64,000 nucleotides of DNA, from sequence record OQ708376.1. One strand, written 5' to 3'. Source of the DNA: Escherichia phage vB_EcoM_CRJP21. The notes under the pieces are model-generated. The model was not told where the DNA came from. It saw only the letters and a program-made list of their open reading frames with translations, and searched no databases. Within the stretch, counting starts at the first letter, position 1, and each line of letters opens with the position of its first letter. Shown piece after piece: positions 3,061-50,827 of this stretch. Made by a program: the position numbers and the translations under genes.

Positions 3061-3324
3061 ATGAATATTAAAGATAGATTACAATTACTGTACACACTTG
3101 AACAGGCTGCTTATGATCTTGTTCGAAAAATCTCAGATGAACTACCTAAAGGAACTAAAGTTCGTGTACGTGAGATGAATTATTTTTCTGGAGTAATTGA
3201 AGAACAAGTACTAACAGTGAATAAAGTAACATACTATGAATCTGAGTTGTCTATTCAGTGTGAATCTGATGATGGATTAATATCATATTATGGAACTGAT
3301 GTAGATATAGAGGTAATAAAATGA
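3061..3324 (+). CDS. hypothetical small protein
   Basis: ATG at 3061 after GGTGGA; track ORF 3016-3324. Confidence 0.45.
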   Translation: MNIKDRLQLLYTLEQAAYDLVRKISDELPKGTKVRVREMNYFSGVIEEQVLTVNKVTYYESELSIQCESDDGLISYYGTDVDIEVIK

Positions 3325-4463
3325 CCCTTTTGCAAATATATGAAGATTTAATGCACTTATGTAATACAAACGATGCATTCTTTTATGTGGATCATAAAAG
3401 TCCTGCTGGTGGCACGTATCGTGTATTCAGTTATCGTCTAGCATCATACACTGATTTCATGCAACCAAATGCGTTGGAAACCCGTGGCTCTATGTGGGAA
3501 ATTGATGAAGAAGGTGACATGATACGTTGTGCAGCACGTACAATGAAAAAGTTCTTCAATGCTTACGAGAATCCTGCTACAATGTTCCCTGCTAACACCA
3601 CATGCGATGACATTGCGGTAGTGATGCCTAAGTTGGATGGCTCGATCATCAGTACTTATCGTGATAATGATGGTGAGATTCGTTGTAAATCACATACTGC
3701 ATTGTATTCTGACCATGCGATTAACAGTACTCGACTTATTAACGAGAACCAGAATTTGTATCAGTACATCGACGAAGCGGAACGTTTAGGTTACACAGTT
3801 AATATGGAGTATACAAGCCCAGAGTACCGAATTGTATTACCATATCAGGTAGAACAACTGTTTGTACTGAACGTTCGTCATCGTGTGAGTGGTGAGTTGC
3901 TATGTGGTAAAGCACTACGTGATAAGTTTCCATGTCTTGCACAGTACAGTACTAATATGACTGGAAAAGATATTCATCACACTTTTCCGGTACGAAATAC
4001 CTTCCGTGAAAGCGTGGAGGAAGTTCATAAAATGCTTGATATTGAGGGTTTTGTGTGCATCCTAAATAATGGGACAATGTGTAAAATAAAGACTGACTGG
4101 TACAGTTCATTACATCTTACAAAAGATAGTATTATTATTGATTCTCATTTATATGAAGCAGTATTAAATGGTTCAAGTGATGATTTAAAACAATTGTTCA
4201 GTACTGATGAATATGCTATGCAAAAGATATTAAGAATGGAACAATTGGTATTTTCGTGCTATAATGCATTACAAGATGAAGTAGAAAGCTTCGTCAAGGA
4301 ACACAAGCACTTGGAGCGAAAGGAATTCGCAATGAAGGTTCAGGAGTGTTTAACTAATGAACTGAATCGTCAGGGCTTGGCCTTTGCAATGTATAACAAT
4401 AAGAAAGTTGATTACAAAGAGACTCTTATAAAATACATGAAAATTGTACTAAAGGATTTTTAG
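3321..4463 (+). CDS. rnlA: RNA ligase 1 (T4 Rnl1-like)
   Basis: 380 aa; N-terminal region (FYVDHKSPAGGTYRVFSYRLASYTDF) matches T4 Rnl1 pattern; ligase motif I lysine in MPKLDGS. Confidence 0.85.
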   Translation: MTLLQIYEDLMHLCNTNDAFFYVDHKSPAGGTYRVFSYRLASYTDFMQPNALETRGSMWEIDEEGDMIRCAARTMKKFFNAYENPATMFPANTTCDDIAVVMPKLDGSIISTYRDNDGEIRCKSHTALYSDHAINSTRLINENQNLYQYIDEAERLGYTVNMEYTSPEYRIVLPYQVEQLFVLNVRHRVSGELLCGKALRDKFPCLAQYSTNMTGKDIHHTFPVRNTFRESVEEVHKMLDIEGFVCILNNGTMCKIKTDWYSSLHLTKDSIIIDSHLYEAVLNGSSDDLKQLFSTDEYAMQKILRMEQLVFSCYNALQDEVESFVKEHKHLERKEFAMKVQECLTNELNRQGLAFAMYNNKKVDYKETLIKYMKIVLKDF

Positions 4464-5559: not shown

Positions 5560-6492
5560 ATGCCAACTATTACACTAACAGTTGGATTACCTGGGTGTGG
5601 TAAAACCACATGGGCAGTTCAAGAAATTAAAAATGCCAAATCCAAGACTATCAACATCAACCGTGATGATATTCGTGAATCTATGGCTGGGTCACATGAT
5701 GCTTACAAATTCAACGATGCTAATGAGCAGTACGTAACTAATTTACAGTTCAGTGCAGCAAATTCAGCAGCAGAGAATGGTTGGAACATCATCATATCCG
5801 ATACAAACCTTAAACAACATTTCCGTAATCTCTGGAAAGTATGGGCTAAAGATAATGGTTATGATTACAAAGAAAAGAACTTCTATGATGATTTTGTACC
5901 TAATGAAGACCGTGGTGCAGATGTTCATGAATTCTTTAAGATTAAAGAGTTCGTAAAACTTTGTAAGAAATATAACCTCCAGCGTGAGCGTTCAGTACAA
6001 GATGATATCATTGACACAATGGCAGATACGTACTATTATAGTAAGGCATTGCACATTGGTTACTATGGTAATTCACGAGAAGCTGCTGTTATCGTTGATA
6101 TTGACGGTACTCTTGCTCATAAATGGGGTCGTAATCCTTACGATGAAAGTACTGTTCTTCAGGATACACCTGATGAAGAAGTTATTTTGTCTATTATCGC
6201 TGAAGCAGTTTTTCATAAACGCAAGATTATCGTCATGAGTGGGCGTACTGAAGGGTGTCGTGCTGATACCGAACAGTGGCTTAAGAATTGGGGTGTTCCT
6301 TACGATGCATTGTTTATGCGAGATATCGATGATAAACGTCCTGATGATGTTGTAAAATTCGACCTGTACATGAAAAATGTGGTTGATCATTACGATGTTA
6401 AAAAGGTATATGATGACCGAGCACAAGTCGTATTCATGTGGCGTAAGCTACTTGGTTTGAAAGTTTTTCAAGTTGCAGAAGGAAATTTCTAA
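5560..6492 (+). CDS. pseT: polynucleotide 5'-kinase / 3'-phosphatase (T4 Pnk-like)
   Basis: P-loop GLPGCGKTT, NINRDDIR, and HAD-type phosphatase motif VDIDGTL; colinear with T4 Pnk over full length. Confidence 0.85.
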   Translation: MPTITLTVGLPGCGKTTWAVQEIKNAKSKTININRDDIRESMAGSHDAYKFNDANEQYVTNLQFSAANSAAENGWNIIISDTNLKQHFRNLWKVWAKDNGYDYKEKNFYDDFVPNEDRGADVHEFFKIKEFVKLCKKYNLQRERSVQDDIIDTMADTYYYSKALHIGYYGNSREAAVIVDIDGTLAHKWGRNPYDESTVLQDTPDEEVILSIIAEAVFHKRKIIVMSGRTEGCRADTEQWLKNWGVPYDALFMRDIDDKRPDDVVKFDLYMKNVVDHYDVKKVYDDRAQVVFMWRKLLGLKVFQVAEGNF

Positions 6493-7524: not shown

Positions 7525-7817
7525 ATATAAAAAAATTATTTGAACAAGTAAATTTATTGTACTGGTGTTCAGACGGTTCAGATAAGGAATATAGTGAAGT
7601 TTATTTAGAACTGTTTAGAACTGAAATTCATCAAATTCGAAGATACCTAATTGATAACAAAACTAAAGTACAAGTAAGATACCATAACGGTACTTTAAAG
7701 AATGGTGTAATTATTGGATTGATAGTTACACGAATGTCTAATAATATTAAAGTTGCAGTTAGATTAATGACTGATGATGGTGTCTACACAATAGAAGCTA
7801 GTGAGATTATATATTAA
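7521..7817 (+). CDS. hypothetical protein
   Basis: 98-aa ORF, ATGA overlap with previous. Confidence 0.45.
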   Translation: MNIKKLFEQVNLLYWCSDGSDKEYSEVYLELFRTEIHQIRRYLIDNKTKVQVRYHNGTLKNGVIIGLIVTRMSNNIKVAVRLMTDDGVYTIEASEIIY

Positions 7818-8123
7818 ATGGATATACAAACATTCAATAAACTTAAGTACTATGATGATGGTTTTGCATTAATAATTAACGAACTTGATGGAATACCATA
7901 CGAATATCATAATCAAGTAATGAAGATAATAAAATGTATATGTGAAGAATTAAAAAGTATATTTAAAAATGAATATGTTTATGATTTAGGTAATAATAGC
8001 AAAAAACTATACATAAAGAAATTCTGGGGAACGCATTGCGGTTTGATGGTCGATTTAGGTTTAAGTTTAGACGATAATTCTGAATCATGTTCATTATATA
8101 TAGATGAAATGCGAATATCATGA
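7818..8123 (+). CDS. hypothetical protein
   Basis: 101-aa ORF. Confidence 0.45.
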   Translation: MDIQTFNKLKYYDDGFALIINELDGIPYEYHNQVMKIIKCICEELKSIFKNEYVYDLGNNSKKLYIKKFWGTHCGLMVDLGLSLDDNSESCSLYIDEMRIS

Positions 8124-9923: not shown

Positions 9924-10667
9924 ATGAAACATTTCTTAGAAGTAACCGTACCTGATGATAAAGATTTATACATTGTAGGTGATTTGCATGGTAATGGTAA
10001 ACTATGGGATGCTACAGTGAAAGAATTTGGTATTACACACAATGATTATGTTTTCAGTGTAGGTGATATTATCGACCGTGGAGAACAAAATTCAAAGCTC
10101 CTTTTTGAATTTTTGTTCGGAGAAAATCGTTACATGATTGCGGGTAATCATGAGATGATGTGCGTTGATTCGGAAACACTTCGAGATTGGTATCATTGTT
10201 GGATAAGTAATGGTGGTGATAAATTCCTTGATGAAGTTGGAGGAACAGGTATTCAATTCTTTCGTCAGTACTTGAAAGATCTCCCTATGATTATCCAAAT
10301 CAATCACCGAGGATTGAAGATTGGGTTAGTTCATGCTGGAGTTCCGTTGGAATATACAACATGGGAACGATTTGTTAATGGGACAAAATCACTTAGTGCT
10401 GATATAATTGATAAGTGCTTGTGGGATAGAAAAACATTCGATTATTGTAGAACTAATAATACATATTATGCACCTAAGTTAGATGGAGTGCATTGTGTCT
10501 TTAGTGGACATACAGCAGTTACAGACCCACTCATTTACGGTAATCGCATTTGGATTGATAGTCAGTTCTTGACGGGTGACTTAACTCTCGCTACTCCACA
10601 AAGTGGTGGAATGAGATACTTACGTAAAGAAAAAGATGAGTACTCATTCAATCGTTTCAAAAGGTAA
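9924..10667 (+). CDS. Ser/Thr protein phosphatase-family metallophosphatase
   Basis: GDLHGN, GDIIDRGEQ, GNHEMM motifs (PPP/ApaH-like); ATG 9924. Confidence 0.7.
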   Translation: MKHFLEVTVPDDKDLYIVGDLHGNGKLWDATVKEFGITHNDYVFSVGDIIDRGEQNSKLLFEFLFGENRYMIAGNHEMMCVDSETLRDWYHCWISNGGDKFLDEVGGTGIQFFRQYLKDLPMIIQINHRGLKIGLVHAGVPLEYTTWERFVNGTKSLSADIIDKCLWDRKTFDYCRTNNTYYAPKLDGVHCVFSGHTAVTDPLIYGNRIWIDSQFLTGDLTLATPQSGGMRYLRKEKDEYSFNRFKR

Positions 10668-10952: not shown

Positions 10953-11180
10953 ATGAAAGTAATTCAAGTTATGGTAGAAAAATACCAAACTGAAGATGGT
11001 CGTATTTTTGATTCAGCTAAACAAGCTGAACACCATGAACGTATTATTTCGGGTGCACGTAAAGTATGTCCTACATGTAATGGAACACAACAAGTACCGT
11101 CAGAAGATTACCGCAGCTTTTATGCTTGTCCACACTGTGATGGGAAAGGCTACGTAGAAAAACAAGAGGTATGGAAATGA
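10953..11180 (+). CDS. zinc-ribbon small protein
   Basis: CPTCNG ... CPHCDGKG, two CxxC pairs. Confidence 0.45.
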   Translation: MKVIQVMVEKYQTEDGRIFDSAKQAEHHERIISGARKVCPTCNGTQQVPSEDYRSFYACPHCDGKGYVEKQEVWK

Positions 11181-11590
11181 AATTGTATTGTTTAACTAAT
11201 ATGTACTGCCAAGGTGTCCAAGCTGGTATTCAAGCATTCCATGCTGGTGTTAAACTAATTAAAGAATATGAAGGTACTGCTTTCAGTACTATTATTGATG
11301 AATGGTACTATGAACACGAAACTATTGTAGTACTAAATGCTGGTGGACATGATAAGTTAAATTTTTATTATAACAACCTTAGCAAACAGGGAAAAGTTCC
11401 GTTTGCCAAATTCAATGAAGCTGGATTGAATGATGCTATTACCTGTGTAGCAGTACTGTGTACGTCTGAAATGATTGAAGACATGGCTGTTATGCGTATG
11501 AATCTTCCTGCTGGTGATCAACTAATGCAAGTAAAATATGGTGCATTGTTTGACACATTAAAAGCAATCAGCACAATGAGGACTATTTGA
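11171..11590 (+). CDS. possible PTH2-like (peptidyl-tRNA hydrolase 2 fold) protein
   Basis: spacing pattern of conserved Gly/Ala/His/Asp positions resembles PTH2; assignment by eye only. Confidence 0.35.
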   Translation: MEMKLYCLTNMYCQGVQAGIQAFHAGVKLIKEYEGTAFSTIIDEWYYEHETIVVLNAGGHDKLNFYYNNLSKQGKVPFAKFNEAGLNDAITCVAVLCTSEMIEDMAVMRMNLPAGDQLMQVKYGALFDTLKAISTMRTI

Positions 11591-12800: not shown

Positions 12801-14219
12801 ATGAGCATTTTAGCAATTCTTGAAAGCATTAAAAATACTAGCAGTACACTAGGCAAAAAAGCTATTCTTGAACAAAATAAAGATAATGTAACTTTACAAA
12901 AAGTACTGAAATATACTCTAGACCCTTCTATCGTTAGTGGCTATAAGAAGCTCCCTGCCGCTGATGACGTATATCAACATATGACGTTAGATGAAGCAAT
13001 TGATAAGCTAGAATGCATTTACAAGCGTGATGTGACAGGAAATGCGGGGCGTGATTTCATTGCTTCAGTACTGGGTTCTGTATCTGAAGATGATCAGGAA
13101 GTTCTCCGTAAAATGCTTACTAAAAACCTTGATTGTGGTATTCAAGAAAAGAACTGCAATGATGTATTTGGTAAAGGCTTTATTAAAGACGAACCATATA
13201 TGCGTTGTTCTTTGATTGACAAAAAGACTGCAAAGAACATCAACTTCAAAGATTATGGTTACGCTATATCAGAAGTGAAAATGGATGGTCAGTACTTGAA
13301 CCACGTTGTTATTAATGGTTCATTAACTTCTACATCCCGTAATGGTAAACTATACGACTTCCTGGGTTGTCGTGATGGTGAGATGGCAGGTCTTGCTCAC
13401 ATCATCCAAAGTAAAGATGAACGTTTTAGTAGTGGTGTGGTCTTTATGGGGGAAGGTGTAGTACTGGACAATGATGGGGAAACCATTCTCCCACGCACTA
13501 CTGGCAACGGTATAATTCAGAAAGCTGGTAAAGATAGCATCAGTCAGAATGAAGCAATGCGTACTGTATTCGTTCTATGGGATGTTGTTCCATATGATGC
13601 ATTTTGTGAAGGTGTATGGGATGTAAAACGTAAAGAACGTCGCGAGATCTTAGTAGATGCAATTAACGAACTCAATAGTGATTTTGTTCGTATGGTTGGA
13701 TTCCGTAAAGTTCTAAACATCAAAGAAGCATTTGAGTACAATAGTGAACTAATGAACGAAGGTGAAGAGGGTTCAGTACTGAAATGTGAAGATGGTATCT
13801 GGAAATCTCACACTTCTCCGAAGCAGTTGAAAATGAAATTGAAAATGCAACTAGACTTGCGTATTGTTGGTTTCAATGAAGGTGAAGGTAAACGTAAAGG
13901 AAGCCTAGGTTCTTTACAACTGGAAAGTGCTTGTGGTTCATTGAAAGTTAATGTGGGTACTGGTATCAAAGAGAAAGATGCTGAATGGACATTTAAAACC
14001 ATTTGGGAAAGAATGCAAGAACTTATTGGTAAAGTGGTTACAGTTGAGTGTAATGACATTGTATTCGAGAAGCGTACTGGTGAGCCATCACTGTTCTTAC
14101 CAGTGTTTATTGAATTTAGATTTGACAAAAACACTTGTGACGACTATACTCGTATTTTAGAAATTCGTGATAGTGCTGTTGAGGTGTTCTCAAACAGTAT
14201 CATTGAATCACTTGGCTAA
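12801..14219 (+). CDS. 30: ATP-dependent DNA ligase (T4 gp30-like)
   Basis: N-terminus ILAILESIKNTSSTLGKKAILEQNKDN parallels T4 ligase; adenylation motif KMDGQ. Confidence 0.85.
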   Translation: MSILAILESIKNTSSTLGKKAILEQNKDNVTLQKVLKYTLDPSIVSGYKKLPAADDVYQHMTLDEAIDKLECIYKRDVTGNAGRDFIASVLGSVSEDDQEVLRKMLTKNLDCGIQEKNCNDVFGKGFIKDEPYMRCSLIDKKTAKNINFKDYGYAISEVKMDGQYLNHVVINGSLTSTSRNGKLYDFLGCRDGEMAGLAHIIQSKDERFSSGVVFMGEGVVLDNDGETILPRTTGNGIIQKAGKDSISQNEAMRTVFVLWDVVPYDAFCEGVWDVKRKERREILVDAINELNSDFVRMVGFRKVLNIKEAFEYNSELMNEGEEGSVLKCEDGIWKSHTSPKQLKMKLKMQLDLRIVGFNEGEGKRKGSLGSLQLESACGSLKVNVGTGIKEKDAEWTFKTIWERMQELIGKVVTVECNDIVFEKRTGEPSLFLPVFIEFRFDKNTCDDYTRILEIRDSAVEVFSNSIIESLG

Positions 14220-14238: not shown

Positions 14239-15030
14239 ATGAAATTTGTTGTAACGTCTGACGTACACGGTGGTACTGATTACCTCCATAGTGGTGATTA
14301 CAGTGATACAGTACTGATTATTGCTGGGGACTTCGATGAAGTTAAACGCAGTCGTTACCGTACTGGTATAGAATCACTATGTAAGCAGTTTAAGAATGTA
14401 GTACTGGTTCCTGGCAATCATGAATATTATGGTTCCAATATCCACAAAACGCATAAAGTACTGTCCGATATGCAAGATGAGATTCCTAATTTCATCTTTT
14501 TGCAAAACAAATTTGTATGGCTGGATGGAGTACTGCTTGTTGGTAGTACTCTGTGGACAGACTTCGATAAAGGTAATTCTTTGACGAAGTTTGATGCTCG
14601 TCTGAAGATGAACGATTACAAACATATCCGTCATGGAACAACATCAGAGCCTTGGCGTAAGAAACTGACACCAGATGATACTGAGTTTATGCATCACAAA
14701 GATAAACAATTTATCAAAAATTCTATTGACACAGTTCGCTTTATGCATGATAATGATTTCAAGGTCATCGTGGTTACCCATCACGCACCAAGTTATCAAA
14801 GTGTTTCACCAAAATATAAAAATGATTCACTGAATGGTTGTTACTGTTCCGATATGGATCAGTACATTGAAGATTTGGGTGCTGATGTTTGGATTCATGG
14901 TCATGTTCATAGTAGTTTTGACTACCACATTGGTAAGACACGTATCATTTGTAATCCACGAGGCTATGAATCATACAGTGGAGCTTGTGAGAATTTTGAT
15001 TACAATCCTAAATTTGTATTTGAAATTTAA
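14239..15030 (+). CDS. calcineurin-like metallophosphoesterase
   Basis: SDVHGG, GDFDE, GNHEYYG, THHAP, GHVH motifs. Confidence 0.65.
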   Translation: MKFVVTSDVHGGTDYLHSGDYSDTVLIIAGDFDEVKRSRYRTGIESLCKQFKNVVLVPGNHEYYGSNIHKTHKVLSDMQDEIPNFIFLQNKFVWLDGVLLVGSTLWTDFDKGNSLTKFDARLKMNDYKHIRHGTTSEPWRKKLTPDDTEFMHHKDKQFIKNSIDTVRFMHDNDFKVIVVTHHAPSYQSVSPKYKNDSLNGCYCSDMDQYIEDLGADVWIHGHVHSSFDYHIGKTRIICNPRGYESYSGACENFDYNPKFVFEI

Positions 15031-19836: not shown

Positions 19837-19871
19837 TTATATCTTCCTAAACAAAATTGAGGACTTGTTAT

Positions 19872-20480
19872 ATGAAAAGACTATGGCTTGAAGTGATACA
19901 AGCAGCGATGTTTCTATTGTTAATAAATTTTCCAGCCAGTGCTGGTATTGAAAGTAAAAATGTGATAAAGTATAATCCTGAAACCCGAAATGTATATTTC
20001 ATATCAGATATTACAGATGGGTCACTCAAGAGAATGATAGAGTTGTATGATAAAGAACACTATGATACCATCACAATTACATCTCCTGGTGGTGATTTTG
20101 ATGCAGGTATTCGAATGGCAAACTTTGTTAGAGACAATGGGATAAATTTAATTGTTTCTAGGTATTGCAATTCAGCATGTACTGTGGTATTCTTTAGTGT
20201 ATCTCCCGAAAAGCGATATATGACAAATCGCTCAGTACTGGGTCTTCATAACATTTCGATTAAAAGTAATGTTACTGATGGTGATAATTCATTTGTGTCT
20301 GTAAGACAGCTATCAACTTTTACCGAAGAAATGGCAACAAAGGTAGGTTTCCTTTTTTCACTATATGCAGCAAATGGAATCCCACCAGAAGTTCTATTTA
20401 GAGTTAGTCGTTCTCGTGGTGAAGATGTTGTAATATTAACAAAACCAGAACTGGTTTTTTACGGTTCAGTCAAACAATAA
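19872..20480 (+). CDS. secreted ClpP-fold serine peptidase-like protein
   Basis: signal peptide MKRLWLEVIQAAMFLLLINFPASA; ITSPGGDFDAG aligned to ClpP SPGG region. Confidence 0.5.
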   Translation: MKRLWLEVIQAAMFLLLINFPASAGIESKNVIKYNPETRNVYFISDITDGSLKRMIELYDKEHYDTITITSPGGDFDAGIRMANFVRDNGINLIVSRYCNSACTVVFFSVSPEKRYMTNRSVLGLHNISIKSNVTDGDNSFVSVRQLSTFTEEMATKVGFLFSLYAANGIPPEVLFRVSRSRGEDVVILTKPELVFYGSVKQ

Positions 20481-20550
20481 AAATAATTAAAATAACAGGA
20501 TGATTATGATGTACTTCCTTTGTTATTAATTATATTGAGATTATATAACT

Positions 20551-20811
20551 ATGACAAACATCCAAAACTTGACATCTATTATTTTTTATGCTACTGTAGT
20601 AATGTATGCTACAGTTATTTTTCTAACAGTTTTCATTTACAAAGATTATCGTAATGGCTTTATTGATCCAACTACAATGAAGTTCAATTCAAAATTCGAA
20701 GCAATAATTTATTATGTACTATCAACTTCATACTTGGTGTGCCTAATGTTGTTAGGAGCACTAATTTATATCTTATACACAACATTATTTGCAATTGGAG
20801 CTATTTTATGA
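20551..20811 (+). CDS. small membrane protein
   Basis: two long hydrophobic segments. Confidence 0.45.
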   Translation: MTNIQNLTSIIFYATVVMYATVIFLTVFIYKDYRNGFIDPTTMKFNSKFEAIIYYVLSTSYLVCLMLLGALIYILYTTLFAIGAIL

Positions 20812-21401
20812 CCTGTATTATTGCACACACTGACGGAGTAAGTTCTTTTATTGCTGGGGATAAGTTAGGAAGCAATGGATTTACAAAAACTGTTCAAACT
20901 GAGCCAAAGGTATTCGAGAAAGAATTTATCAAGTTACATGATGATGGACTAACTAGAACTAAAGAAGTAATGGCATTGGGTTATACTACATCATTTCGTA
21001 TGGGTCAGTTGTTAAATTATAACCTTAATTTACCTGAACAAGATGCTAGTCAAACATTTTCACAATATTTGGTTCTTAAAGTTATTCCAATCATTCGTCA
21101 AATGTTTAAAGAAGAATGGGGTGCACGAGATGCATCACAAGATGTAGGTGGTGGACAATTTATCATTCTCCACAATCATACAATCTATGAAGTTCAAGAA
21201 GACTTTTCAGTACTACAACCTAAAACAAGAATTACCGCAGTAGGTAGTGGGACATATCATGCAATTGCAGCAATGCAAGCATATATTGAAGTTGAGAACG
21301 AATCTAAAAAACCACTACACGAACGTATCAAATCAATTTTTAAAATTGTTAGTGATAATGTAACAAGCGTAAGCGAAGAGTTTGATGTTTTAAAATATTA
21401 A
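20808..21401 (+). CDS. HslV / proteasome beta-like Ntn peptidase
   Basis: ATG 20808 gives MTCIIAHTDG (Thr at position 2 as in HslV); FIAGDKLGSNG and TAVGSGTYHAIAAMQA parallel HslV. Confidence 0.55.
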   Translation: MTCIIAHTDGVSSFIAGDKLGSNGFTKTVQTEPKVFEKEFIKLHDDGLTRTKEVMALGYTTSFRMGQLLNYNLNLPEQDASQTFSQYLVLKVIPIIRQMFKEEWGARDASQDVGGGQFIILHNHTIYEVQEDFSVLQPKTRITAVGSGTYHAIAAMQAYIEVENESKKPLHERIKSIFKIVSDNVTSVSEEFDVLKY

Positions 21402-21632: not shown

Positions 21633-22385
21633 ATGATATCAGAAAAATTTATAAGCAATGAAGGTAAAAAGCGATTACTGATTATATCAGGTGCAGGACT
21701 TTCTGTTGAAAGTGGTATGGAACCTTTTCGATTTGATGATGGTTTGTGGGATACATTTAAAATTAATGATGTATGTAACATTGCTAGTTTAACTACGAAA
21801 TATCACGTTGTTCATTCCTTCTATAATACATTACGTGTAAAATTGGGTCAATGCAAACCCAATGCAATGCATTATTTTATAAAATCGTTAGAAGATCAAT
21901 ATGGTGATTGCTTCCTTCATATGACTTCTAACATGGACGATCTTTATACTCGTATTGGTGGTCATGAGCTTAAACTTCATGGAAACTTGTGCGAAGTTAT
22001 TGAAAATTATAGTATCAATTCCGATGATTATAATGTTATTAACTGCGGATACGAACCATACATACCAAAACATGATGTTTTTGCCAAACCAAATGTAGTA
22101 ATGATTGGAGAATATCATCGTTATGTTGATGGTATTCGCTTACCAATTTACGAAGAACGAAATAATGTGTTGAAATCTCTTAATGAAAATGATACAGTTA
22201 TTGTAATTGGTAGTAGCGATACAGTACTGGTATGGTCGAGATTAGCAGCAGCATTACCATGTTATAGTGTTAATGTTAACATTCGTAAAAATGATAATGA
22301 TTTTTTGTTTAATGAAAAAGTTATCAAGCCAGCAACCAAAGCAATACCGCATCTAGAGACTATAATTAAGGAACGTATGAAATGA
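21633..22385 (+). CDS. Sir2-family (sirtuin/CobB-like) NAD-dependent enzyme
   Basis: GAGLSVESGMEPFR, HMTSNMDDL, catalytic LHGNL, VVMIGE, VIGSSDTV; lacks canonical CxxC zinc tetrad. Confidence 0.75.
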   Translation: MISEKFISNEGKKRLLIISGAGLSVESGMEPFRFDDGLWDTFKINDVCNIASLTTKYHVVHSFYNTLRVKLGQCKPNAMHYFIKSLEDQYGDCFLHMTSNMDDLYTRIGGHELKLHGNLCEVIENYSINSDDYNVINCGYEPYIPKHDVFAKPNVVMIGEYHRYVDGIRLPIYEERNNVLKSLNENDTVIVIGSSDTVLVWSRLAAALPCYSVNVNIRKNDNDFLFNEKVIKPATKAIPHLETIIKERMK

Positions 22386-22933
22386 GTGTTAAAGAAGTTC
22401 CCTTTGGTGAATATGGCACACGTGCAAATTTTGTATTTTGTTATTTCTTTGCAAGAAAATGCAACCCTTACAAAAACTATGAGTTGAATGATATACCAGA
22501 AGTAAATTTAGTATTACTGCAATTACGATGGGATGGTCTTCTTGGTGGATGTGGTGGAACCGTAGAAAGTACTGATATCTCACTAGAAGATGCGTTGCGT
22601 CGTGAAGTTCAAGAAGAAATGGATTACAATATTTTTGTTTCCCATCTTCGACCACTCAAAACTTTTGAAATTTACCCAGGTGCAAACAGTCACAGTTTTA
22701 GCTATGAAGTAACCTATGACGAGTTGAAACACATTAGAGATGGATACACTAATGCTAAACATGCAAGTGCAGAAGTTGCTGGTGTAAATTTATGTCATAT
22801 TTCGCGTTATTCTAAGGGACAAAATCGAGAAGCGGGATATAATAATCTTATGACACAGAACTTCATCGGTACAGCAAAACAAGAATTGGAGTATCTGGTT
22901 CAAAAAGAAAACTTACTAATTAGTTATCTATAG
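22382..22933 (+). CDS. Nudix-like hydrolase (divergent Nudix box)
   Basis: GGTVESTDISLEDALRREVQEEMDY approximates GX5EX7REUXEEXGU with a 3-residue insertion. Confidence 0.4.
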   Translation: MSVKEVPFGEYGTRANFVFCYFFARKCNPYKNYELNDIPEVNLVLLQLRWDGLLGGCGGTVESTDISLEDALRREVQEEMDYNIFVSHLRPLKTFEIYPGANSHSFSYEVTYDELKHIRDGYTNAKHASAEVAGVNLCHISRYSKGQNREAGYNNLMTQNFIGTAKQELEYLVQKENLLISYL

Positions 22934-22942
22934 GAGTTTAAC

Positions 22943-23263
22943 ATGTCTTACTCAATGTTTTTGGATGATATTCGTGATGCAAATCTATATTATCCAAACC
23001 AAGATATGGTGGTATGTCGTGACTTTAAAAGTGCATGTGAATATGTTATTGAAAATGGAATTCCAGCATTTGTATCATTCGACCATGACTTGGGTGATGT
23101 GAGCGAAGACGAAAAGACTGGATATTCTTTTGCTAAGTTTCTTATTGATTATATGTTTGATAATAATATTAAAGAACCGTTTGAGTACTTTGTTCACAGT
23201 AGTAATCCTGTTGGTAAAATTAATATTGAAACATACTTAAACAATGGATTTAACTCATTATGA
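22943..23263 (+). CDS. hypothetical protein
   Basis: 106-aa ORF. Confidence 0.45.
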   Translation: MSYSMFLDDIRDANLYYPNQDMVVCRDFKSACEYVIENGIPAFVSFDHDLGDVSEDEKTGYSFAKFLIDYMFDNNIKEPFEYFVHSSNPVGKINIETYLNNGFNSL

Positions 23264-23562
23264 TTCAAACACACATCAAAAGTCTTATTTGTACTGTTCT
23301 GTTAGGTGCAGGAGTTCTTTGGTTCGGACAGTATCACGAGAACACTAAGCGTACCAACATTCACTACAATACCGCAGAAGTTGTTAGTTTAGGACAATGT
23401 AGCGAGTCCAAATGTTCATTTATGTATAAAACCCAAAGTGGTGAAGTACGTAATGGACTATCAAGAGAACCAGTTTCAATTGGTCAACTTGTTTACCAGG
23501 AGTGCTGGGAAGAAAAGGTTCGAGGTTCACGTTGCTATGTTGAATACGAACCAAATATGTAA
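23260..23562 (+). CDS. membrane-anchored hypothetical protein
   Basis: N-terminal TM LICTVLLGAGVLWFGQY. Confidence 0.45.
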   Translation: MIQTHIKSLICTVLLGAGVLWFGQYHENTKRTNIHYNTAEVVSLGQCSESKCSFMYKTQSGEVRNGLSREPVSIGQLVYQECWEEKVRGSRCYVEYEPNM

Positions 23563-23622
23563 TAATCCGAGTCAATAACATTAGTCGAGTACAAGGATGT
23601 ACTCATAACTCAAGGATGTTTT

Positions 23623-25062
23623 ATGAAAAAATATACAATTGACACAAACGTACTACTATCTGACCCTAATGCATCTATTGCTTTTGATGGTGCTGCAATC
23701 ATTCTACCATTTACAGTACTGGAAGAATTGGATTCAATTAAGAGTCGTAATGTAGATGTTTCACGCGATGCTCGTGTTGCTATTCGTAACATTGAAGCAA
23801 TTATTGCAGATGCATCACATGATGAGATTAGTAGTACTGGTGTTAATATTGCTGATGTTCATACCAATATGAATCCTGATAGCAAATTGTTTGTTATTAC
23901 AAACGAAGAAGCTGAAGCACTAATTCGTACTAAAGGTTCAGAAGAGAAAGTTCAAACCCTTCTCAAAAGCACAGTACCTGATGATAAAATCATTCTGGTA
24001 GCTTTAGCAACAGAATCAGTACTGGTAACTCGTGATATCAACATGCGTATCAAAGCACTAAGTTATGGTGTCGAGGTACAAGATTATCGCCATGATATTG
24101 TTATTGGTGATAGTGATTTGATTCACATTGGTCAACACCATTTGGAAATTAATTTTTGGGAAGTATATAGCAACTTATCCAATACTAATATTCAATCCGA
24201 ACAAGTTGGTCGTCGTTTGTATCATTACATTTCTAAAAGCTTGATTGAACATTTGCTTCCACAAAATCTATGCATCGGTGATTATCTATATGATGATGCA
24301 GACGTATTATTTGTGTACGAAGGTCAATCAGCAATTGAGGAAGATGATGGAACACTAACACCAGAAGATATTTTGGTATTCCAAGATATTGGACAATCAG
24401 TAGCTTTACGTGCTAAAGTATGGGATATTAAAGCAAAGAATATCCAACAAGCACTCGCCATCAACAGTATTCTCGATCCTGATGTACATCTAACAGTACT
24501 GCTAGGTTCTGCTGGTACTGGTAAAACACTAATTACGATTGCTACTGCATTAGAATTAGTACTGGAAAAACGTAAATACGACCGAATCATCTTCTCTAAA
24601 ACTCAAGACTCACAGTTTGAAGATATTGGTTTCTTGCCAGGTTCAGAAGCAGAAAAAGTGATTCCATTCTGTGGAGCCGCAATTGACGCGTTAGAGTTTC
24701 TTCATAAAGATGATGCTAACCCTCAAGGTAGTATTGAAGAGATTATGAAACGTAATGTTATTCAATTTAAAGCACTAAACTTTGTACGTGGACGTTCATT
24801 CACCAACACTATTCTAGTAGTTGATGAATTCCAAAACATTACACCTGCACAAGCTAAAACAATCTTGACACGAGCAGGATTAAACTGTAAAGTAGTAATT
24901 ATGGGTAACTTGAGTCAGATTGACAGTAAGTTTATTAGTCCTGTTAACAGTGGTTTGACATATGTAACTGAGAAGTTTAAAGATTGGGCAGGTTGTCGTG
25001 TCATCGAACTAGAAGGTGTTGTTCGTTCACCACTTGCAGAATTTGCTGAAGAAAATATGTAA
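23623..25062 (+). CDS. phoH: PIN-domain + PhoH-like ATPase
   Basis: N-terminal PIN (IDTNVLL), Walker A GSAGTGKTL, Walker B VVDEFQN. Confidence 0.8.
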   Translation: MKKYTIDTNVLLSDPNASIAFDGAAIILPFTVLEELDSIKSRNVDVSRDARVAIRNIEAIIADASHDEISSTGVNIADVHTNMNPDSKLFVITNEEAEALIRTKGSEEKVQTLLKSTVPDDKIILVALATESVLVTRDINMRIKALSYGVEVQDYRHDIVIGDSDLIHIGQHHLEINFWEVYSNLSNTNIQSEQVGRRLYHYISKSLIEHLLPQNLCIGDYLYDDADVLFVYEGQSAIEEDDGTLTPEDILVFQDIGQSVALRAKVWDIKAKNIQQALAINSILDPDVHLTVLLGSAGTGKTLITIATALELVLEKRKYDRIIFSKTQDSQFEDIGFLPGSEAEKVIPFCGAAIDALEFLHKDDANPQGSIEEIMKRNVIQFKALNFVRGRSFTNTILVVDEFQNITPAQAKTILTRAGLNCKVVIMGNLSQIDSKFISPVNSGLTYVTEKFKDWAGCRVIELEGVVRSPLAEFAEENM

Positions 25063-48142: not shown

Positions 48143-48415
48143 ATGAAAACAAAATTATTTCCACAACAAATAATGATTGAACTGTGCGAACATCAGTCTG
48201 GTGAAGTTGTTACAATCAGTGGTGATACGTATTCCATCATTTTAAATGAACAACAATTTGATCATACAAACCATACGAATGAACTGTATAATCTTATGTT
48301 TATGGACGATAAGAGTGAAAAATACTATCATTGTACATATGAACGATGTATAGATACAACACCATTTTGTAATGAAATGGTTGGTGTTAAATGTTATGAA
48401 TGTGAAGTGTTATGA
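48143..48415 (+). CDS. hypothetical Cys-rich protein, tandem paralog 1 of 2
   Basis: MKTKLFPQQIMIELCEH ... KYYHCTYER. Confidence 0.5.
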   Translation: MKTKLFPQQIMIELCEHQSGEVVTISGDTYSIILNEQQFDHTNHTNELYNLMFMDDKSEKYYHCTYERCIDTTPFCNEMVGVKCYECEVL

Positions 48416-48435
48416 AGTTTTTTAGGTAAAAATAT

Positions 48436-48792
48436 ATGAAAACAAAAATCTTTCTACCACAAACCATGATGGAACTGTGTGAACATGATGCAGGGGATGT
48501 TGTCACTATTAGTGGTTCCTGGAATGAGAGTACTGAAGACTTTATGCCAGATGAGGTATATTCTGTTGTTTTAAATGAACAGTACAATACAAGCCGTTGG
48601 AATGCACAGTACAATCTAGTTTTTCTTGACAATAACAATGAAAAGTACTATCATTGTACGTATGAACGAGGTCTGACAGAACGTAACTACACAACTCCTT
48701 TCTGTGATGAAATGGATGGTGTAAAGTGCTATGAAGTTTATGTTCGTCAGGTTCCAGTTGTTACTTACAAAACCGAGTGGGATTATCTGTAA
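48436..48792 (+). CDS. hypothetical Cys-rich protein, tandem paralog 2 of 2
   Basis: MKTKIFLPQTMMELCEH ... KYYHCTYER. Confidence 0.5.
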   Translation: MKTKIFLPQTMMELCEHDAGDVVTISGSWNESTEDFMPDEVYSVVLNEQYNTSRWNAQYNLVFLDNNNEKYYHCTYERGLTERNYTTPFCDEMDGVKCYEVYVRQVPVVTYKTEWDYL

Positions 48793-49190
48793 TGCTTAAA
48801 GATTTAGATTTTTCAAATTTAGAGATCATCAGTGCAGTGAAGAATATTACTGATATGGATGATGAAAAAGGTGTAATGGTAACTATCACTTTCGTAAAGG
48901 AAGAGGATAGCTATAAGCATCTTACTGGAATTGAAGAACTAATTCATAAAACCAATCTTGAGAATGATGGTAAACTCATCAAGCTTCAGGCTTCATATAC
49001 GCAAAAAACGTCAAATTTTATAGACCTAAATAATGTAGTCAAGGTGGTATACAATCATCCTGATCACACATATAGGAACACGACAAGAAATGAAAATGTT
49101 GCTAACGATTCGAATATTATCGAAGATGTTGAATTCATAAACACAATTTTTGATCGTTGTTCTAAGGATTTAAAAAAAGTATACATGTAA
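48792..49190 (+). CDS. hypothetical protein
   Basis: ATG 48792 overlapping previous stop. Confidence 0.45.
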   Translation: MLKDLDFSNLEIISAVKNITDMDDEKGVMVTITFVKEEDSYKHLTGIEELIHKTNLENDGKLIKLQASYTQKTSNFIDLNNVVKVVYNHPDHTYRNTTRNENVANDSNIIEDVEFINTIFDRCSKDLKKVYM

Positions 49191-49191
49191 T

Positions 49192-49219
49192 GGGACATTA
49201 TATGTTCCAATGATATAAT
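49192..49219 (+). promoter_or_regulatory. promoter GGGACA-N13-TGATATAAT
   Basis: same architecture as 25071 promoter; drives the ORF-poor island. Confidence 0.5.
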
Positions 49220-49496
49220 GTATATAGAAAATGACAACGGACATTGAAAAATGGACACTGAGAACCTACTTCTCTTGAAAATGTAAAGGATAGATGAGCT
49301 TTACCGTTGTAGCGAACAGCAGAAGAAACCTGTTAGAGTACTGGCATTTAAACAAACACGATGTAAGACCACGAATCACGGCGACACGGCTGTATAAAGA
49401 ACTCCGATAAGCATACAGAGAGTTCCTAGATAGATGTATAAGGTTCGCACCTTACCAGATTTGCTAAGGGAGTTTAAGAATAGCGGACGCAATTTT

Positions 49497-49525
49497 ACAA
49501 GAAAGTTGCGTCCAAAATTTGAGAA
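49497..49525 (+). repeat. direct repeat copy 1 (29 bp)
   Basis: ACAAGAAAGTTGCGTCCAAAATTTGAGAA; copy 2 at 49649-49677 differs at 2 positions. Confidence 0.7.
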
Positions 49526-49648
49526 CAGGTACTACTTTGATCGAATAGAGTTAGTACTGAGTGCTGTTGATGAAAAGACCAGCGACCGTTGCATATGACT
49601 GCGATAGAGAGAAACCGAGCAACCCGCTTTCGCTCTCTAAATTTTGGT

Positions 49649-49677
49649 ACAAGAAAGATCCGTCCAAAATTTGAGAA
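49649..49677 (+). repeat. direct repeat copy 2 (29 bp)
   Basis: ACAAGAAAGATCCGTCCAAAATTTGAGAA. Confidence 0.7.
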
Positions 49678-49713
49678 ATTCGCAATTCGATAATATCCGA
49701 TGCCATCATCGTC

Positions 49714-49740
49714 AAGAGAGACTTAATTGTCTCTTTTTTA
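49714..49740 (+). terminator. intrinsic terminator
   Basis: GAGAGAC-ttaatt-GTCTCT then TTTTTT. Confidence 0.6.
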
Positions 49741-49878
49741 TTATCTTCATTCCCCTGCGGGGGATGTAATAGTCCTCAACAAATCCCGTCAAGTTTTTAA
49801 AGTACATTATCATTTTCAGAAGGAACTAGTTTACGAAGTAAACGCAGTGACTTCTTGAGTTACGAGAGAACGAAGTGA

Positions 49879-50307
49879 ATGAGTAACACAACGAAAATAT
49901 CCGATAAATCTGAATTAACACAAATGTTATTCAAAGAATATTTTGAGTTCCAGATAAAAGACGAACATCAATTACCACAGCAATATTTGAAAAGAATTAA
50001 AGATCCGTCAGTAATTACTAAAGAAACTAATTTTTATAATAGTATTTTAGATTTCGTTAAATCAGTTCATACAACAAGACCTATTGTAGTTTTGTTTTTT
50101 GATAAATCTATTCCTTTAGTAGTTCCTGAAAATGTATTTTTTATCTCAGAAACTGATTTAAATAATCAAAGTACTGTAAGTAGATTAAGAAATTGCTTAC
50201 TTGTAGTATGTGATTCTTCTTTGTATATTAATAGAATACTATGGGATAGAAGTAAACGCAATACAGTTTCGGAAATGAATCCTGAAATTACCTTTATTAT
50301 TAACTAA
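49879..50307 (+). CDS. hypothetical protein
   Basis: 142-aa ORF, ATG 49879. Confidence 0.5.
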   Translation: MSNTTKISDKSELTQMLFKEYFEFQIKDEHQLPQQYLKRIKDPSVITKETNFYNSILDFVKSVHTTRPIVVLFFDKSIPLVVPENVFFISETDLNNQSTVSRLRNCLLVVCDSSLYINRILWDRSKRNTVSEMNPEITFIIN

Positions 50308-50339
50308 ATAATAAGAGAATAACTCTAAGGAGAGATATT

Positions 50340-50780
50340 ATGGAAGATATTAATGATTTACGACACGTAATGGACTTTATCGGAAGTACTGAAGAAGATA
50401 ATTCATATGATGAAGTACTATTAACTTTTATTGAAAATAGTTTGTTTTTGAGTTCTGCTGCACATAACTGGCACTTACAATGTCATTTTTATACAAAGCA
50501 TTTACAATTAGATGAACTATATAAAGAATTACCAGAATATGTAGACGCATTTGTTGAAGGTATCATGAATAATCGTGGTGCTTTACAAGTTGGGACTGGT
50601 AATAGTTATCGTTTTACACCAATTGAAGATTGTGTACCAATTCTTGAAGAATATGTTGAGCAATGCAGAGCAATTCATGATATGCTTGAAGAATCGGGTG
50701 ATTACGGCAGTGTAAACACATTAGAAGATATTATGAGTTTTGTTGAAGGCGTACTTTACAAACTTAAAGTTTTACAATAA
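50340..50780 (+). CDS. Dps/ferritin-like protein
   Basis: LTFIENSLFLSSAAHNWHLQCHFYTKHLQLDELYKEL ... RGALQVGT aligns with E. coli Dps helix A/B region. Confidence 0.65.
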   Translation: MEDINDLRHVMDFIGSTEEDNSYDEVLLTFIENSLFLSSAAHNWHLQCHFYTKHLQLDELYKELPEYVDAFVEGIMNNRGALQVGTGNSYRFTPIEDCVPILEEYVEQCRAIHDMLEESGDYGSVNTLEDIMSFVEGVLYKLKVLQ

Positions 50781-50787
50781 ACTATAT

Positions 50788-50816
50788 GGAGAGTCGTTAT
50801 GACTCTCCTTTTCTTT
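50788..50816 (+). terminator. intrinsic terminator
   Basis: GGAGAGTC-gttat-GACTCTCC then TTTTCTTTT. Confidence 0.65.
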
Positions 50817-50827
50817 TGGAGAAAATA

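Follow-up and report, generated by a model that had tools for sequence, protein, structure and literature searches.

A conserved jumbo-phage gene block encoding a zinc-less sirtuin and a NUDT16-like Nudix hydrolase, with a possible role in NAD+-dependent healing of RNA ends

The 64-kb stretch of DNA analysed here (the window) comes from an Asteriusvirus (PBECO4/121Q-like) jumbo phage of Escherichia coli, and carries a block of five genes, all on the plus strand and spanning positions 21633-25062, for a zinc-less sirtuin, a Nudix hydrolase, a cREC domain protein, a small membrane protein and a PIN-PhoH protein. The function that we tentatively consider most likely for this block is an NAD+-dependent repair of damaged ends in RNA (tRNA), following Iyer et al. 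2022.

As a prediction, the module has been described before. Iyer, Burroughs, Anantharaman and Aravind (2022; Viruses 14:1977; PMC9503650, section 3.7.3) described a jumbo-phage neighbourhood of sirtuin, 2H, Nudix, cREC and PIN genes and proposed, as a prediction only, that a Tpt1/KptA-like sirtuin strips 2'-phosphates from RNA in an NAD+-dependent repair process, and that cREC and Nudix break down its by-product, an ADP-ribose cyclic phosphate. Likewise, dozens of jumbo-phage records in GenBank are already annotated with a 'Sir2 NAD-dependent deacetylase' and a 'nudix hydrolase', so that the initial annotation of this DNA was mistaken in not knowing the pairing as a described phage module. 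With the genes already annotated and the hypothesis published, our finding adds little as a genome scan.

Organization of the gene block

The sirtuin gene (21633..22385, +, 250 aa) starts at the ATG at 21633, with an AGGA 8 nt 5' of it, and its TGA stop (22383-22385) shares an ATGA with the start codon of the Nudix gene (22382..22933, +, 183 aa), which agrees with the 4-nt overlap noted initially. After a gap of 9 nt comes the cREC gene (22943..23263, +, 106 aa), whose stop overlaps, in a second ATGA, the start of the gene for a conserved, membrane-anchored and Cys-rich protein of 100 aa (23260..23562, +); the PIN-PhoH gene (23623..25062, +) closes the block. Given these two overlaps and the short gap, the genes form a tight operon, and the Nudix gene is probably translationally coupled to the sirtuin gene through their shared ATGA. 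The two-gene scope of the initial annotation was thus too short, because the cREC, membrane protein and PIN-PhoH genes belong to the same block.

Two candidate partners are encoded elsewhere in the window: a T4 Rnl1-type RNA ligase (3321..4463, +; Pfam RNA_lig_T4_1 and T4_Rnl1_C), whose gene is non-contiguous with the block and lies 17 kb upstream of it, and a T4-type polynucleotide kinase-phosphatase, Pnkp (5560..6492, +; Pfam AAA_33 kinase and HAD_PNKP, E=1.5e-43). The window also encodes a CCA-adding-type nucleotidyltransferase and a PTH2-like hydrolase. An Rfam scan at gathering thresholds and ARAGORN, both run over the whole 64 kb, returned no match, and scans for promoters and terminators were weakly informative because their counts were no higher than in shuffled sequence.

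The sirtuin

The first product of the block matches Pfam SIR2 (PF02146; E=4e-20, 72.9 bits, cutoff 24) and PHROG Sir2 (E=5e-77), and among PDB sequences it is closest to E. coli CobB (E=5e-22). Its AF2 model (pLDDT 89.5) retrieved CobB first in Foldseek (TM 0.76-0.85, E=6.5e-17), followed by Sir2Af1 and SIRT5. The motifs G20-A-G-L-S...F32-R33, T98-S-N-M-D-D-L and L115-H116-G-N-L are all present, and G20, G22, S27, G28, N100, D102, D103, H116, G117, G159 and E160 are invariant across 27 sirtuin homologues; the catalytic His is also retained in T5-like, KVP40, phapecoctavirus and Felix-O1-like sirtuins. The Sir2-family call made initially is therefore upheld by the reading frame, its motifs, the profile matches and the fold, and failed neither on family placement nor on conservation of the catalytic His. 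Judged by these scores, the family assignments of the sirtuin and of the Nudix protein lie far beyond chance, and the former is predicted to be an NAD+-consuming enzyme of ADP-ribosyl transfer.

The usual zinc tetrad is missing, as had been noticed: the cysteines of the CobB Cys4 zinc-module region (VRC...KCHCC) have no counterparts, the phage protein having just C120 and C138, neither of them conserved in homologues, and no Cys is conserved among the 27 homologues. The sirtuin of the RaK2 lineage has, in addition, lost the FR motif.

Three assignments were rejected. Orthology with CobB fails because all matches to the NCBIfam CobB equivalog models are sub-threshold (85.8-92.7 bits against cutoffs of 243-320). 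Homology with Tpt1 does not hold either, the phage protein having a sirtuin fold and not an ART fold, so that any likeness would be mechanistic at most. Finally, a SIR2 of a defence system was discarded after a PADLOC scan of the whole block gave no match to defence SIR2 models at E<=0.01, and no SLOG, HerA or pAgo genes were found among the neighbours of the sirtuin gene. Literature searches for experiments on phage sirtuins, or for sirtuin/Tpt1 in phages, found none.

The Nudix hydrolase and the downstream proteins

The Nudix product scored above the cutoff for Pfam Nudt16-like (PF22327; E=8e-19, 68.6 bits, cutoff 27) and also matched Pfam NUDIX (E=5e-7) and PHROG nudix (E=1e-90), and phmmer comparison with the PDB retrieved human NUDT16 (E=3e-12). 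Using its AF2 model (pLDDT 93), Foldseek returned only NUDT16, X29 and TIRR structures at ranks 1-39 (around 1e-14), the next Nudix family appearing at 2e-7. These results confirm the Nudix fold of this reading frame and the presence of a Nudix box; the box, initially considered divergent, is of the NUDT16 type and aligns without gaps to those of human NUDT16 and Xenopus X29. Residues E62, R74, E75, E78 and E79 (the REx2EE motif plus an upstream Glu) are invariant in 12 homologues. Sequence and fold thus place this protein specifically in the NUDT16 family, as a putative pyrophosphatase, a point that is new relative to Iyer et al. 2022.

NUDT16 acts in RNA decapping and in the hydrolysis of IDP. 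Among the Foldseek matches listed were structures of NUDT16 with ADP-ribose and di-ADPR (PDB 5W6X, 6B09), as well as NUDT16-IMP and NUDT16-FAD structures, and human NUDT16 was reported to remove protein ADP-ribosylation (PMC8883491). Some members of the Nudt16-like family are fused to Ham1-family (Pfam Ham1p_like) or HD domains, not to NAD-related domains, and Aeromonas LAh phages have a distantly related Nudt16-like gene that is not near any Sir2 gene. The nearest cluster representatives are metagenomic sequences, and a pattern scan of GTDB genomes gave no relatives.

The cREC protein (Pfam cREC_REC, E=1.5e-22), a predicted metal-independent cyclic-phosphate phosphodiesterase, contains FLDD...SFDHD acidic motifs that were judged Rec-like by eye only, and is fused to a Nudt16-like Nudix domain in Serratia phage BF and in P0041. 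The membrane protein (phrog_14661, E=4e-44) is syntenic in BF, RaK2 and relatives from IMG/VR and Logan, and one relative (L029) has a Bax1-I membrane protein within the block. The PIN-PhoH product (PhoH2-like; Pfam PIN_4, E=7e-20, and PhoH, E=7e-44) is a predicted RNase and RNA helicase/ATPase, although its match to the NCBIfam model 'RNA 5'-3' helicase PhoH2' is under the model cutoff; it shows 66-80% identity, and synteny, in all Rak2-like relatives.

Neighbourhoods in other phages

The five-gene block is kept across all Rak2-like jumbo phages (BF, RaK2, GAP32-like and metagenomic relatives), with identities to the Asteriusvirus proteins of 43-62% for Sir2 and 47-57% for Nudix, and the two genes keep their ATGA coupling at protein identities of about 50%. 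A zinc-less sirtuin occurs in around a thousand sequenced phages of enterobacteria, Vibrio and other hosts (T5-like, rV5-like, KVP40-like and Rak2-like). A search for the gene pair in other phage genomes, as proposed initially, found Sir2 next to a Nudt16-like gene in 74 of 974 sirtuin-carrying phage records, in one phage lineage only, so that the adjacency could be inherited synteny. IMG/VR scans yielded only 11 Sir2 loci and two Nudix loci, mostly from known phages.

Relatives differ in what precedes the block. Genes for NMNAT-Nudix and Nampt lie 1-5 kb upstream of it in BF, RaK2 and seven other relatives (L011, L013-L015, L023, L024 and L029), and in BF, L011 and L013-L015 the gene directly upstream encodes a 2H protein with a match to Pfam Acb1 (E=3.6e-15, 56 bits, cutoff 27). 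This putative NAD+ salvage pair and the Acb1-like gene were not pointed out before, and neither was their absence from the Asteriusvirus window: no Nampt or NMNAT gene occurs in the 64 kb, tblastn with the BF 2H/Acb1-like protein gave no match there at E<=1e-3, and no Asteriusvirus record figured among the top 60 tblastn matches of Nampt.

Outside the Rak2-like phages, the sirtuin clade keeps other company. In Vequintavirus phage inoa, Rnl1, cREC and Sir2 genes are consecutive, the ligase being of the type encoded at 3321..4463 in the window; inoa also carries a divergent P-loop kinase and a calcineurin-like phosphoesterase, with a tRNA cluster about 5 kb away. In T5-like SSP1, a gene for a HAD_SAK_2 'RNA repair' phosphatase overlaps Sir2, and in Aeromonas phage AS-zj a distance of 1.4 kb separates the cREC gene from an annotated tRNA nucleotidyltransferase gene. 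The sirtuin neighbourhoods of KVP40 and of one phapecoctavirus are annotated as hypothetical proteins and were uninformative.

Proposed function of the block

In the reading that we favour, the zinc-less sirtuin would bind NAD+, release nicotinamide and move the ADP-ribose to a phosphate oxygen of RNA, its target being the 2'-phosphate that would remain after opening of the 2',3'-cyclic end left by a host nuclease. In the manner of Tpt1/KptA, the ribose 2''-OH, activated by His116, would attack this phosphate, producing RNA with a clean 2'-OH and ADP-ribose 1'',2''-cyclic phosphate. The cREC protein would open a cyclic phosphate, either on the ADP-ribose by-product or on the RNA end itself, the NUDT16-like enzyme would split the ADP-ribose pyrophosphate into AMP and ribose phosphate, and the phage's own Rnl1 and Pnkp would do the sealing. 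We infer the RNA-phosphate substrate, the order of these steps and the roles of the membrane and PIN-PhoH proteins.

This reading builds on the domain identities, the intact catalytic residues and the conserved operon structure, and on the occurrence of this sirtuin clade beside RNA-repair enzymes in three lineages of phages; the Rnl1, Pnkp, CCA-adding-type nucleotidyltransferase and PTH2-like hydrolase of the window are consistent with it. In the Tpt1-CPDase-Poa1 pathway, a cyclic phosphodiesterase, a phosphatase and an ADP-ribose pyrophosphatase carry out the successive steps of Appr>p disposal, a scheme that the proposed RNA repair would fit. Several observations count against it. The nearest characterised relatives of the sirtuin, CobB and SIRT5, are protein lysine deacylases, and a protein substrate stays plausible given the invariant G-E of the 'FGE' peptide-binding loop; the T4-type Pnkp/Rnl1 pathway works without removal of 2'-phosphates; NAD+ salvage and Acb1-family 2H genes, both with established parts in counter-defence, lie beside the block in relatives; the RaK2-lineage sirtuin lacks the FR motif; and the Sir2-Nudt16-like adjacency is limited to a single lineage. 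A variant to which we give a small chance is that phosphate ends of RNA receive ADP-ribose or NAD-derived caps, with the sirtuin as writer and the NUDT16-like enzyme as eraser. Host or phage RNA would then be ADP-ribosylated by the sirtuin at 5'- or 2'-phosphates, or NAD-capped RNA would be the donor, and the NUDT16 homologue would take the cap off, amounting to a control of RNA ADP-ribosylation based on a sirtuin, not on an ART fold, and not to simple repair.

Among the alternatives, the resemblance to CobB raises the possibility of a host-takeover enzyme that deacetylates, desuccinylates or ADP-ribosylates host or phage proteins, with the Nudix enzyme clearing O-acyl-ADP-ribose or ADP-ribose, or trimming protein-bound ADP-ribose. 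The top sequence and fold matches (CobB, Sir2Af and SIRT5), the invariant N100, D102, H116 and FGE-loop G-E, and a Y64...R68 pair resembling the acyl-carboxylate-binding Y/R of class III sirtuins agree with such an activity, as do the removal of protein ADP-ribosylation and the ligand-bound structures of NUDT16 mentioned above. We nevertheless regard it as rather unlikely: CobB equivalog scores (86-93 bits) fall well short of their cutoffs (243-320), throughout the clade the cysteines are gone from the zinc module that forms part of the peptide cleft, another residue stands in for the Gln of TQNID, and the distance between Y and R is off by one residue. In addition, a deacylase pathway has no part for the conserved cREC, HAD-SAK phosphatase and RNA ligase neighbours, and would need an esterase or Macro domain, none of which is linked. 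The similarity to defence SIR2 NADases, which have an Asn/His catalytic pair and no zinc module, both features shared by the phage sirtuin, could suggest an NADase with which the phage would deplete NAD+ to shut off the host or exclude superinfecting phages. This is very improbable, considering that PADLOC gave no defence SIR2 match, that deacylases lead the fold search, with no defence SIR2 structure among the 50 best matches listed, that NAD+ synthesis genes lie beside the sirtuin gene in most relatives, and that no sensor or partner domain is present.

The genes upstream of the block in relatives bear on whether it is a small-molecule counter-defence island, in which Nudix and cREC, and possibly the sirtuin, would destroy NAD+-derived signals or toxic products (gcADPR, His-ADPR, ADPR-1''P, ADPr>P), or recycle products to NAD+ salvage, complementing the NARP2-like and Acb1-like neighbours. 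NARP2 (bioRxiv 10.1101/2024.02.11.579819) and Acb1 (PMC9117128) are counter-defences demonstrated experimentally, and a phage Poa1p-like phosphatase that acts on ADPR-1''P counters the aRES system (10.64898/2026.01.28.702374); besides, Iyer et al. 2021 proposed cREC and Nudix as degraders of cyclic ADPr signals. However, it is hard to see what a sirtuin that consumes NAD+ would contribute to NAD+ rescue, the Asteriusvirus keeps the block in a window devoid of Nampt, NMNAT and Acb1-like genes, with no orthologous Nampt in the top 60 matches, and the Vequintavirus and T5-like contexts feature an RNA ligase and a phosphatase of RNA ends in place of NAD+ salvage, making this island unlikely in our estimation. 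The initial suggestion of host NAD+/ADP-ribose manipulation or counter-defence retains some plausibility, given the NAD+ salvage and Acb1-like genes next door in relatives. The gene context across several lineages favours a more specific reading, the repair of RNA ends, and such repair is also a kind of counter-defence. It is also improbable that the genes are independent neighbours joined by inherited synteny, the NUDT16-like protein acting alone as an RNA 5'-end pyrophosphohydrolase or decapper (ppp-RNA, NAD-RNA) or as a (d)IDP/ITP sanitiser. The pairing in a single phage lineage, the LAh phages, the fusions to Ham1p_like or HD domains and the decapping and IDP hydrolysis by NUDT16, with its IMP and FAD structures, speak for independence; the ATGA coupling maintained at about 50% identity, the Nudix-cREC fusion and the linkage of cREC to the same sirtuin clade in Vequintaviruses speak against it.

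If Tpt1-like chemistry on RNA were true, the phage protein would provide the first demonstration of a sirtuin acting on nucleic acid and a convergent solution to the removal of 2'-phosphates, and it would explain why roughly a thousand sequenced phages carry a zinc-less sirtuin. The locus in the window offers a compact and clean version for testing it, because Sir2, Nudix and cREC are encoded separately and genes of NAD+ salvage are missing from its surroundings.

Comparison with known systems

The block most resembles configuration 1 of Iyer et al. 2022, whose prototype is Serratia phage BF: the sirtuin belongs to the same clade (43% identity to that of BF), and the Nudix, cREC and PIN(-PhoH) genes are the same and in the same order, in a related jumbo-phage lineage. 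Nudix and cREC are separate genes here and fused in BF, and the 2H gene and the adjacent Nampt and NMNAT-Nudix genes of BF are absent from the 64-kb window. In that work, the Nudix protein was not identified as NUDT16-family nor the 2H protein as Acb1-family.

In relatives, genes of the NAD+ reconstitution pathways NARP2 and NARP1-AP of phages (Osterman et al.), and Acb1, directly adjoin the block, and all process NAD+ or ADP-ribose derivatives; Nampt, NMNAT, Adps, Namat, Macro Adpp and Acb1 are all absent from the window, and the sirtuin consumes NAD+ whereas the NARP pathways rebuild it. NARP3, composed of PnuC and NadR, was considered and found to be unrelated.

With CobB and class III sirtuins (SIRT5, Sir2Af1), the phage sirtuin shares the Rossmann fold, the GAG...FR loop, the NID Asn and Asp, the catalytic His, GxS and G-E (TM 0.76-0.85, 28% identity). 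It differs from them in the lack of the Cys4 zinc site, in having Ser, Thr or Ala for the Gln of TQNID and Y-x3-R instead of Y-x2-R, and in an additional beta-hairpin after the G-E motif. Xenopus X29 is the U8 snoRNA decapping enzyme, and NUDT16/X29 proteins hydrolyse ADP-ribose, IDP and metabolite caps. The phage Nudix protein belongs, by Pfam, sequence and fold, to the same sub-family as human NUDT16 and X29, at 24-27% identity, but it is phage-encoded, and coupled or fused to cREC and a sirtuin. With the Tpt1/KptA-CPDase-Poa1 pathway of tRNA splicing, the block would have in common its proposed chemistry, that is, NAD+-dependent removal of a 2'-phosphate to give Appr>p, followed by disposal of the latter; the folds are unrelated (sirtuin Rossmann versus ART, cREC versus 2H), and the analogy is one of how the systems would work.

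Gene organization of the block

Listing of ORFs recovered two plus-strand genes that match the initial annotation exactly. The sirtuin gene (21633-22385, 250 aa; Pfam SIR2, E = 4e-20) starts at the ATG at 21633, 8 nt downstream of an AGGA, and its TGA overlaps the ATG of the Nudix gene (22382-22933, + strand, 183 aa; Pfam Nudt16-like, E = 8e-19, plus NUDIX) as ATGA. Nine nucleotides separate the Nudix stop from the start of a cREC gene (22943-23263, 106 aa; cREC_REC, E = 1.5e-22), a domain defined in a 2021 jumbo-phage paper by Iyer et al. The cREC stop overlaps the start, at 23260, of a 100-aa gene (23260-23562) without a Pfam family and classed by PHROGs as a membrane protein, followed after a 60-nt gap by a PIN-PhoH gene (23623-25062, 479 aa; PIN_4, E = 7e-20; PhoH, E = 7e-44). 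PHROGs assignments of the block products were consistent with Pfam.

A distinct phage clade of sirtuins

Escherichia coli CobB was the best solved relative of Sir2 by sequence (E = 5e-22) and the top structural match of its AF2 model (pLDDT 89.5; TM 0.76-0.85, 28% identity), followed by Sir2Af1 and SIRT5, with no defence NADase structure among the best 50 matches listed. Residues G20, G22, S27, G28, N100, D102, D103, the catalytic H116, G159 and E160 were invariant in 27 homologues, across which none of the zinc-module cysteines was conserved and the Gln of the TQNID motif was replaced by Ser, Thr or Ala. When CobB was aligned to T5-like, KVP40, phapecoctavirus and Felix-O1-like sequences, the entire phage clade proved to lack the zinc site and to keep the His. 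The CobB equivalog models scored far under their cutoffs, excluding a CobB orthologue, and no PADLOC defence-SIR2 model matched, excluding a defence NADase. Because of these conserved residues, the zinc-less alignment and the model results, Sir2 is a member of a distinct phage clade within the sirtuin superfamily, its NAD+-cleaving site intact.

In the lineage of phage RaK2 (L003:4264-5001; proteins P0011/P0013), GNGLS replaces GAGLS and the cofactor-binding loop no longer has its FR motif (DLYD there), with Asn, Asp and His retained; NAD+ binding may be altered or weakened.

The Nudix protein belongs to the NUDT16 family

The predicted Nudix identity of the downstream gene was borne out by Pfam, sequence and fold. 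Human NUDT16 and Xenopus X29 matched it at E of about 3e-12 in single-sequence searches, aligning without gaps over the extended Nudix box, and residues E62, R74, E75, E78 and E79 were invariant. For its AF2 model (pLDDT 93), NUDT16, X29 and TIRR filled Foldseek ranks 1-39 (about 1e-14, TM about 0.8), and the nearest other Nudix family trailed by five orders of magnitude. An exhaustive profile search of 1.84 billion cluster representatives recovered only 476 Nudt16-like relatives, 163 of them at E<=1e-10, including fusions to cREC, Ham1-family, HD or nucleotidyltransferase domains. Outside phages the family is functionally heterogeneous, since metagenomic proteins P0086, P0090, P0138 and P0173 join the Nudt16-like domain to Ham1-family (Pfam Ham1p_like), HD_4 and cytidylyltransferase-like domains.

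Distribution and variants

The 3 kb around the Sir2-Nudix pair were 100% identical in phage vB_EcoM_E9.1 and at least 99% identical in 17 other PBECO4/121Q-type jumbo phages (about 350 kb). Away from this locus, identity between the window and E9.1 (PP886230) drops to 95-97.6%, with indels; this range was seen past about 36 kb, and an indel or rearranged block lies at about 48200-50830. The window thus belongs to an Asteriusvirus isolate that is related to E9.1 but not the same.

By tblastn, the sirtuin clade occurred in T5-like, rV5-like, phapecoctavirus, KVP40-like, Felix-O1-like and Rak2-like phages, 974 records in total, and the Nudt16-like Nudix in only 74, nearly all Rak2-like jumbo phages among the matches listed. 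The latter adjoins Sir2 wherever those records carry annotation; a distant homologue in Aeromonas LAh has no Sir2 nearby. All five genes are kept in Serratia phage BF, where Nudix and cREC are fused, in RaK2, and in four IMG/VR and three Logan contigs. Some relatives carry an extra 118-122-aa ORF between Sir2 and Nudix (L013:8750-9118, whose product is acidic; L029:6755-7111), and in one of them a Bax1-I family membrane protein (L029:7675-8322) separates Nudix from cREC.

In BF, RaK2 and all the IMG/VR and Logan relatives, NMNAT-Nudix and Nampt genes lie 1-5 kb upstream of the block. Immediately ahead of Sir2, BF (L002:3507-3953) and contigs L011 and L013-L015 (around 7536-7982) encode a 2H protein of 148 aa; this 2H or 'RNA ligase' gene matched Pfam Acb1, a 2H phosphodiesterase that counters CBASS, above threshold (E = 3.6e-15). 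No NMNAT-Nudix, Nampt or 2H/Acb1-like gene was found in the window, and no Asteriusvirus record was among the best 60 Nampt matches. The interval that holds these genes in other Rak2-like genera is occupied in the window (19857-21401) by two genes. One encodes a ClpP/NfeD-like protease whose N-terminus has a hydrophobic segment, the other an HslV-like peptidase, which is also found at that place in L011, L013 and L015.

RNA-repair genes near phage sirtuins

A distinct phage sirtuin clade was described in three neighbourhood types, including one with T4-like RNA ligase, cREC, kinase and MazG in V5-like phages and one with a 'Swiss-army-knife' HAD phosphatase in SP15-like (T5-like) phages (Iyer, Burroughs, Anantharaman & Aravind 2022, PMC9503650, section 3.7.3). 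These authors proposed that a KptA/Tpt1-like sirtuin strips RNA 2'-phosphates, with the enzymes linked to it either opening cyclic phosphates or acting on ADPr>P; we found no experimental follow-up in the literature.

In Vequintavirus phage inoa, genes for an Rnl1-type ligase, cREC and Sir2 are consecutive, each overlapping or abutting the next. Upstream of them, in divergent orientation, are genes for a P-loop kinase and a calcineurin-like phosphoesterase, and tRNA genes cluster about 5 kb off. In T5-like SSP1, a HAD_SAK_2 gene (E = 7.5e-20) overlaps the Sir2 stop; downstream and co-oriented are two paralogous proteins with two DUF7415 repeats each (L009:6309-7136). The cREC gene of Aeromonas phage AS-zj adjoins a gene annotated as metal-dependent phosphohydrolase and lies 1.4 kb from an annotated tRNA nucleotidyltransferase.

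The window itself encodes, 15-18 kb upstream of the block and on the same strand, a T4-type tRNA repair pair: Rnl1 (3321-4463; RNA_lig_T4_1 and T4_Rnl1_C) and Pnkp (5560-6492; kinase and HAD_PNKP). A 137-aa 'hydrolase' (11177-11590) is a borderline match to PTH2 peptidyl-tRNA hydrolase (23.1 bits, cutoff 23). Against toxins that acetylate tRNA, a Pth of phage origin could be relevant. Calcineurin-like phosphoesterases are encoded at 9924-10667 and 14239-15030, one directly after an ATP-dependent DNA ligase (12801-14219), which suggests a possible end-processing and ligation pair. The region 58537-60409 contains a CCA-adding-type nucleotidyltransferase (PolyA_pol head and RNA-binding domain). 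After it come another Nudix, a generic one of 132 aa, and a gene that carries the annotation thioredoxin-domain protein in E9.1.

Possible roles of the module

Cyclic phosphodiesterase, phosphatase and ADP-ribose pyrophosphatase are the enzyme types repeatedly linked to the phage sirtuin. Disposal of ADP-ribose 1'',2''-cyclic phosphate (Appr>p) downstream of Tpt1 consists of these same three steps, and a lysine deacylase would need neither such disposal nor sealing enzymes. We therefore favour, tentatively, a sirtuin acting by Tpt1-like RNA-phosphate chemistry, in which the linked enzymes would clear Appr>p, and RNA ligase and kinase would provide the sealing steps; which substrate the sirtuin uses, and in what order the reactions run, is what we infer here. 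A sirtuin that deacylates or ADP-ribosylates proteins in the manner of CobB, with the Nudix enzyme cleaning up afterwards, agrees with the closest structural match, but a deacylase pathway would leave the linked cyclic phosphodiesterase, HAD phosphatase and RNA ligase without a role; it seems rather unlikely.

For counter-defence at the small-molecule level, connected with the NARP2 (Nampt and NMNAT) and Acb1 neighbours of the relatives, there is a precedent in a phage Poa1p-like phosphatase recently found to defeat the aRES system (10.64898/2026.01.28.702374); with those neighbours lacking beside the Asteriusvirus block, we regard it as unlikely. That Sir2 and Nudix work independently, as their pairing in a single phage lineage might suggest, is improbable given that their ATGA coupling is conserved, and a phage NADase, despite the intact NAD+-cleaving site, is very improbable given the fold and PADLOC searches.

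Comparison with known phage modules

The initial annotation was correct in its observation and partly right in its interpretation, but mistaken in considering the pairing undescribed: the locus belongs to a phage module predicted computationally in PMC9503650, and related phage records already label the first gene 'Sir2 NAD-dependent deacetylase' or 'cobB' and the second 'nudix hydrolase'. Our searches show which domains the genes encode and that the module is conserved. To that description we add the absence of NAD+ salvage genes beside the block in the Asteriusvirus window and the loss of the zinc site across the whole phage sirtuin clade. The NUDT16-family identity of the Nudix protein is a small addition, because Iyer et al. 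leave it unassigned to that family, and the Acb1-family identity of the 2H gene adjoining the block in relatives is likewise new, their neighbourhood description not noting this match.
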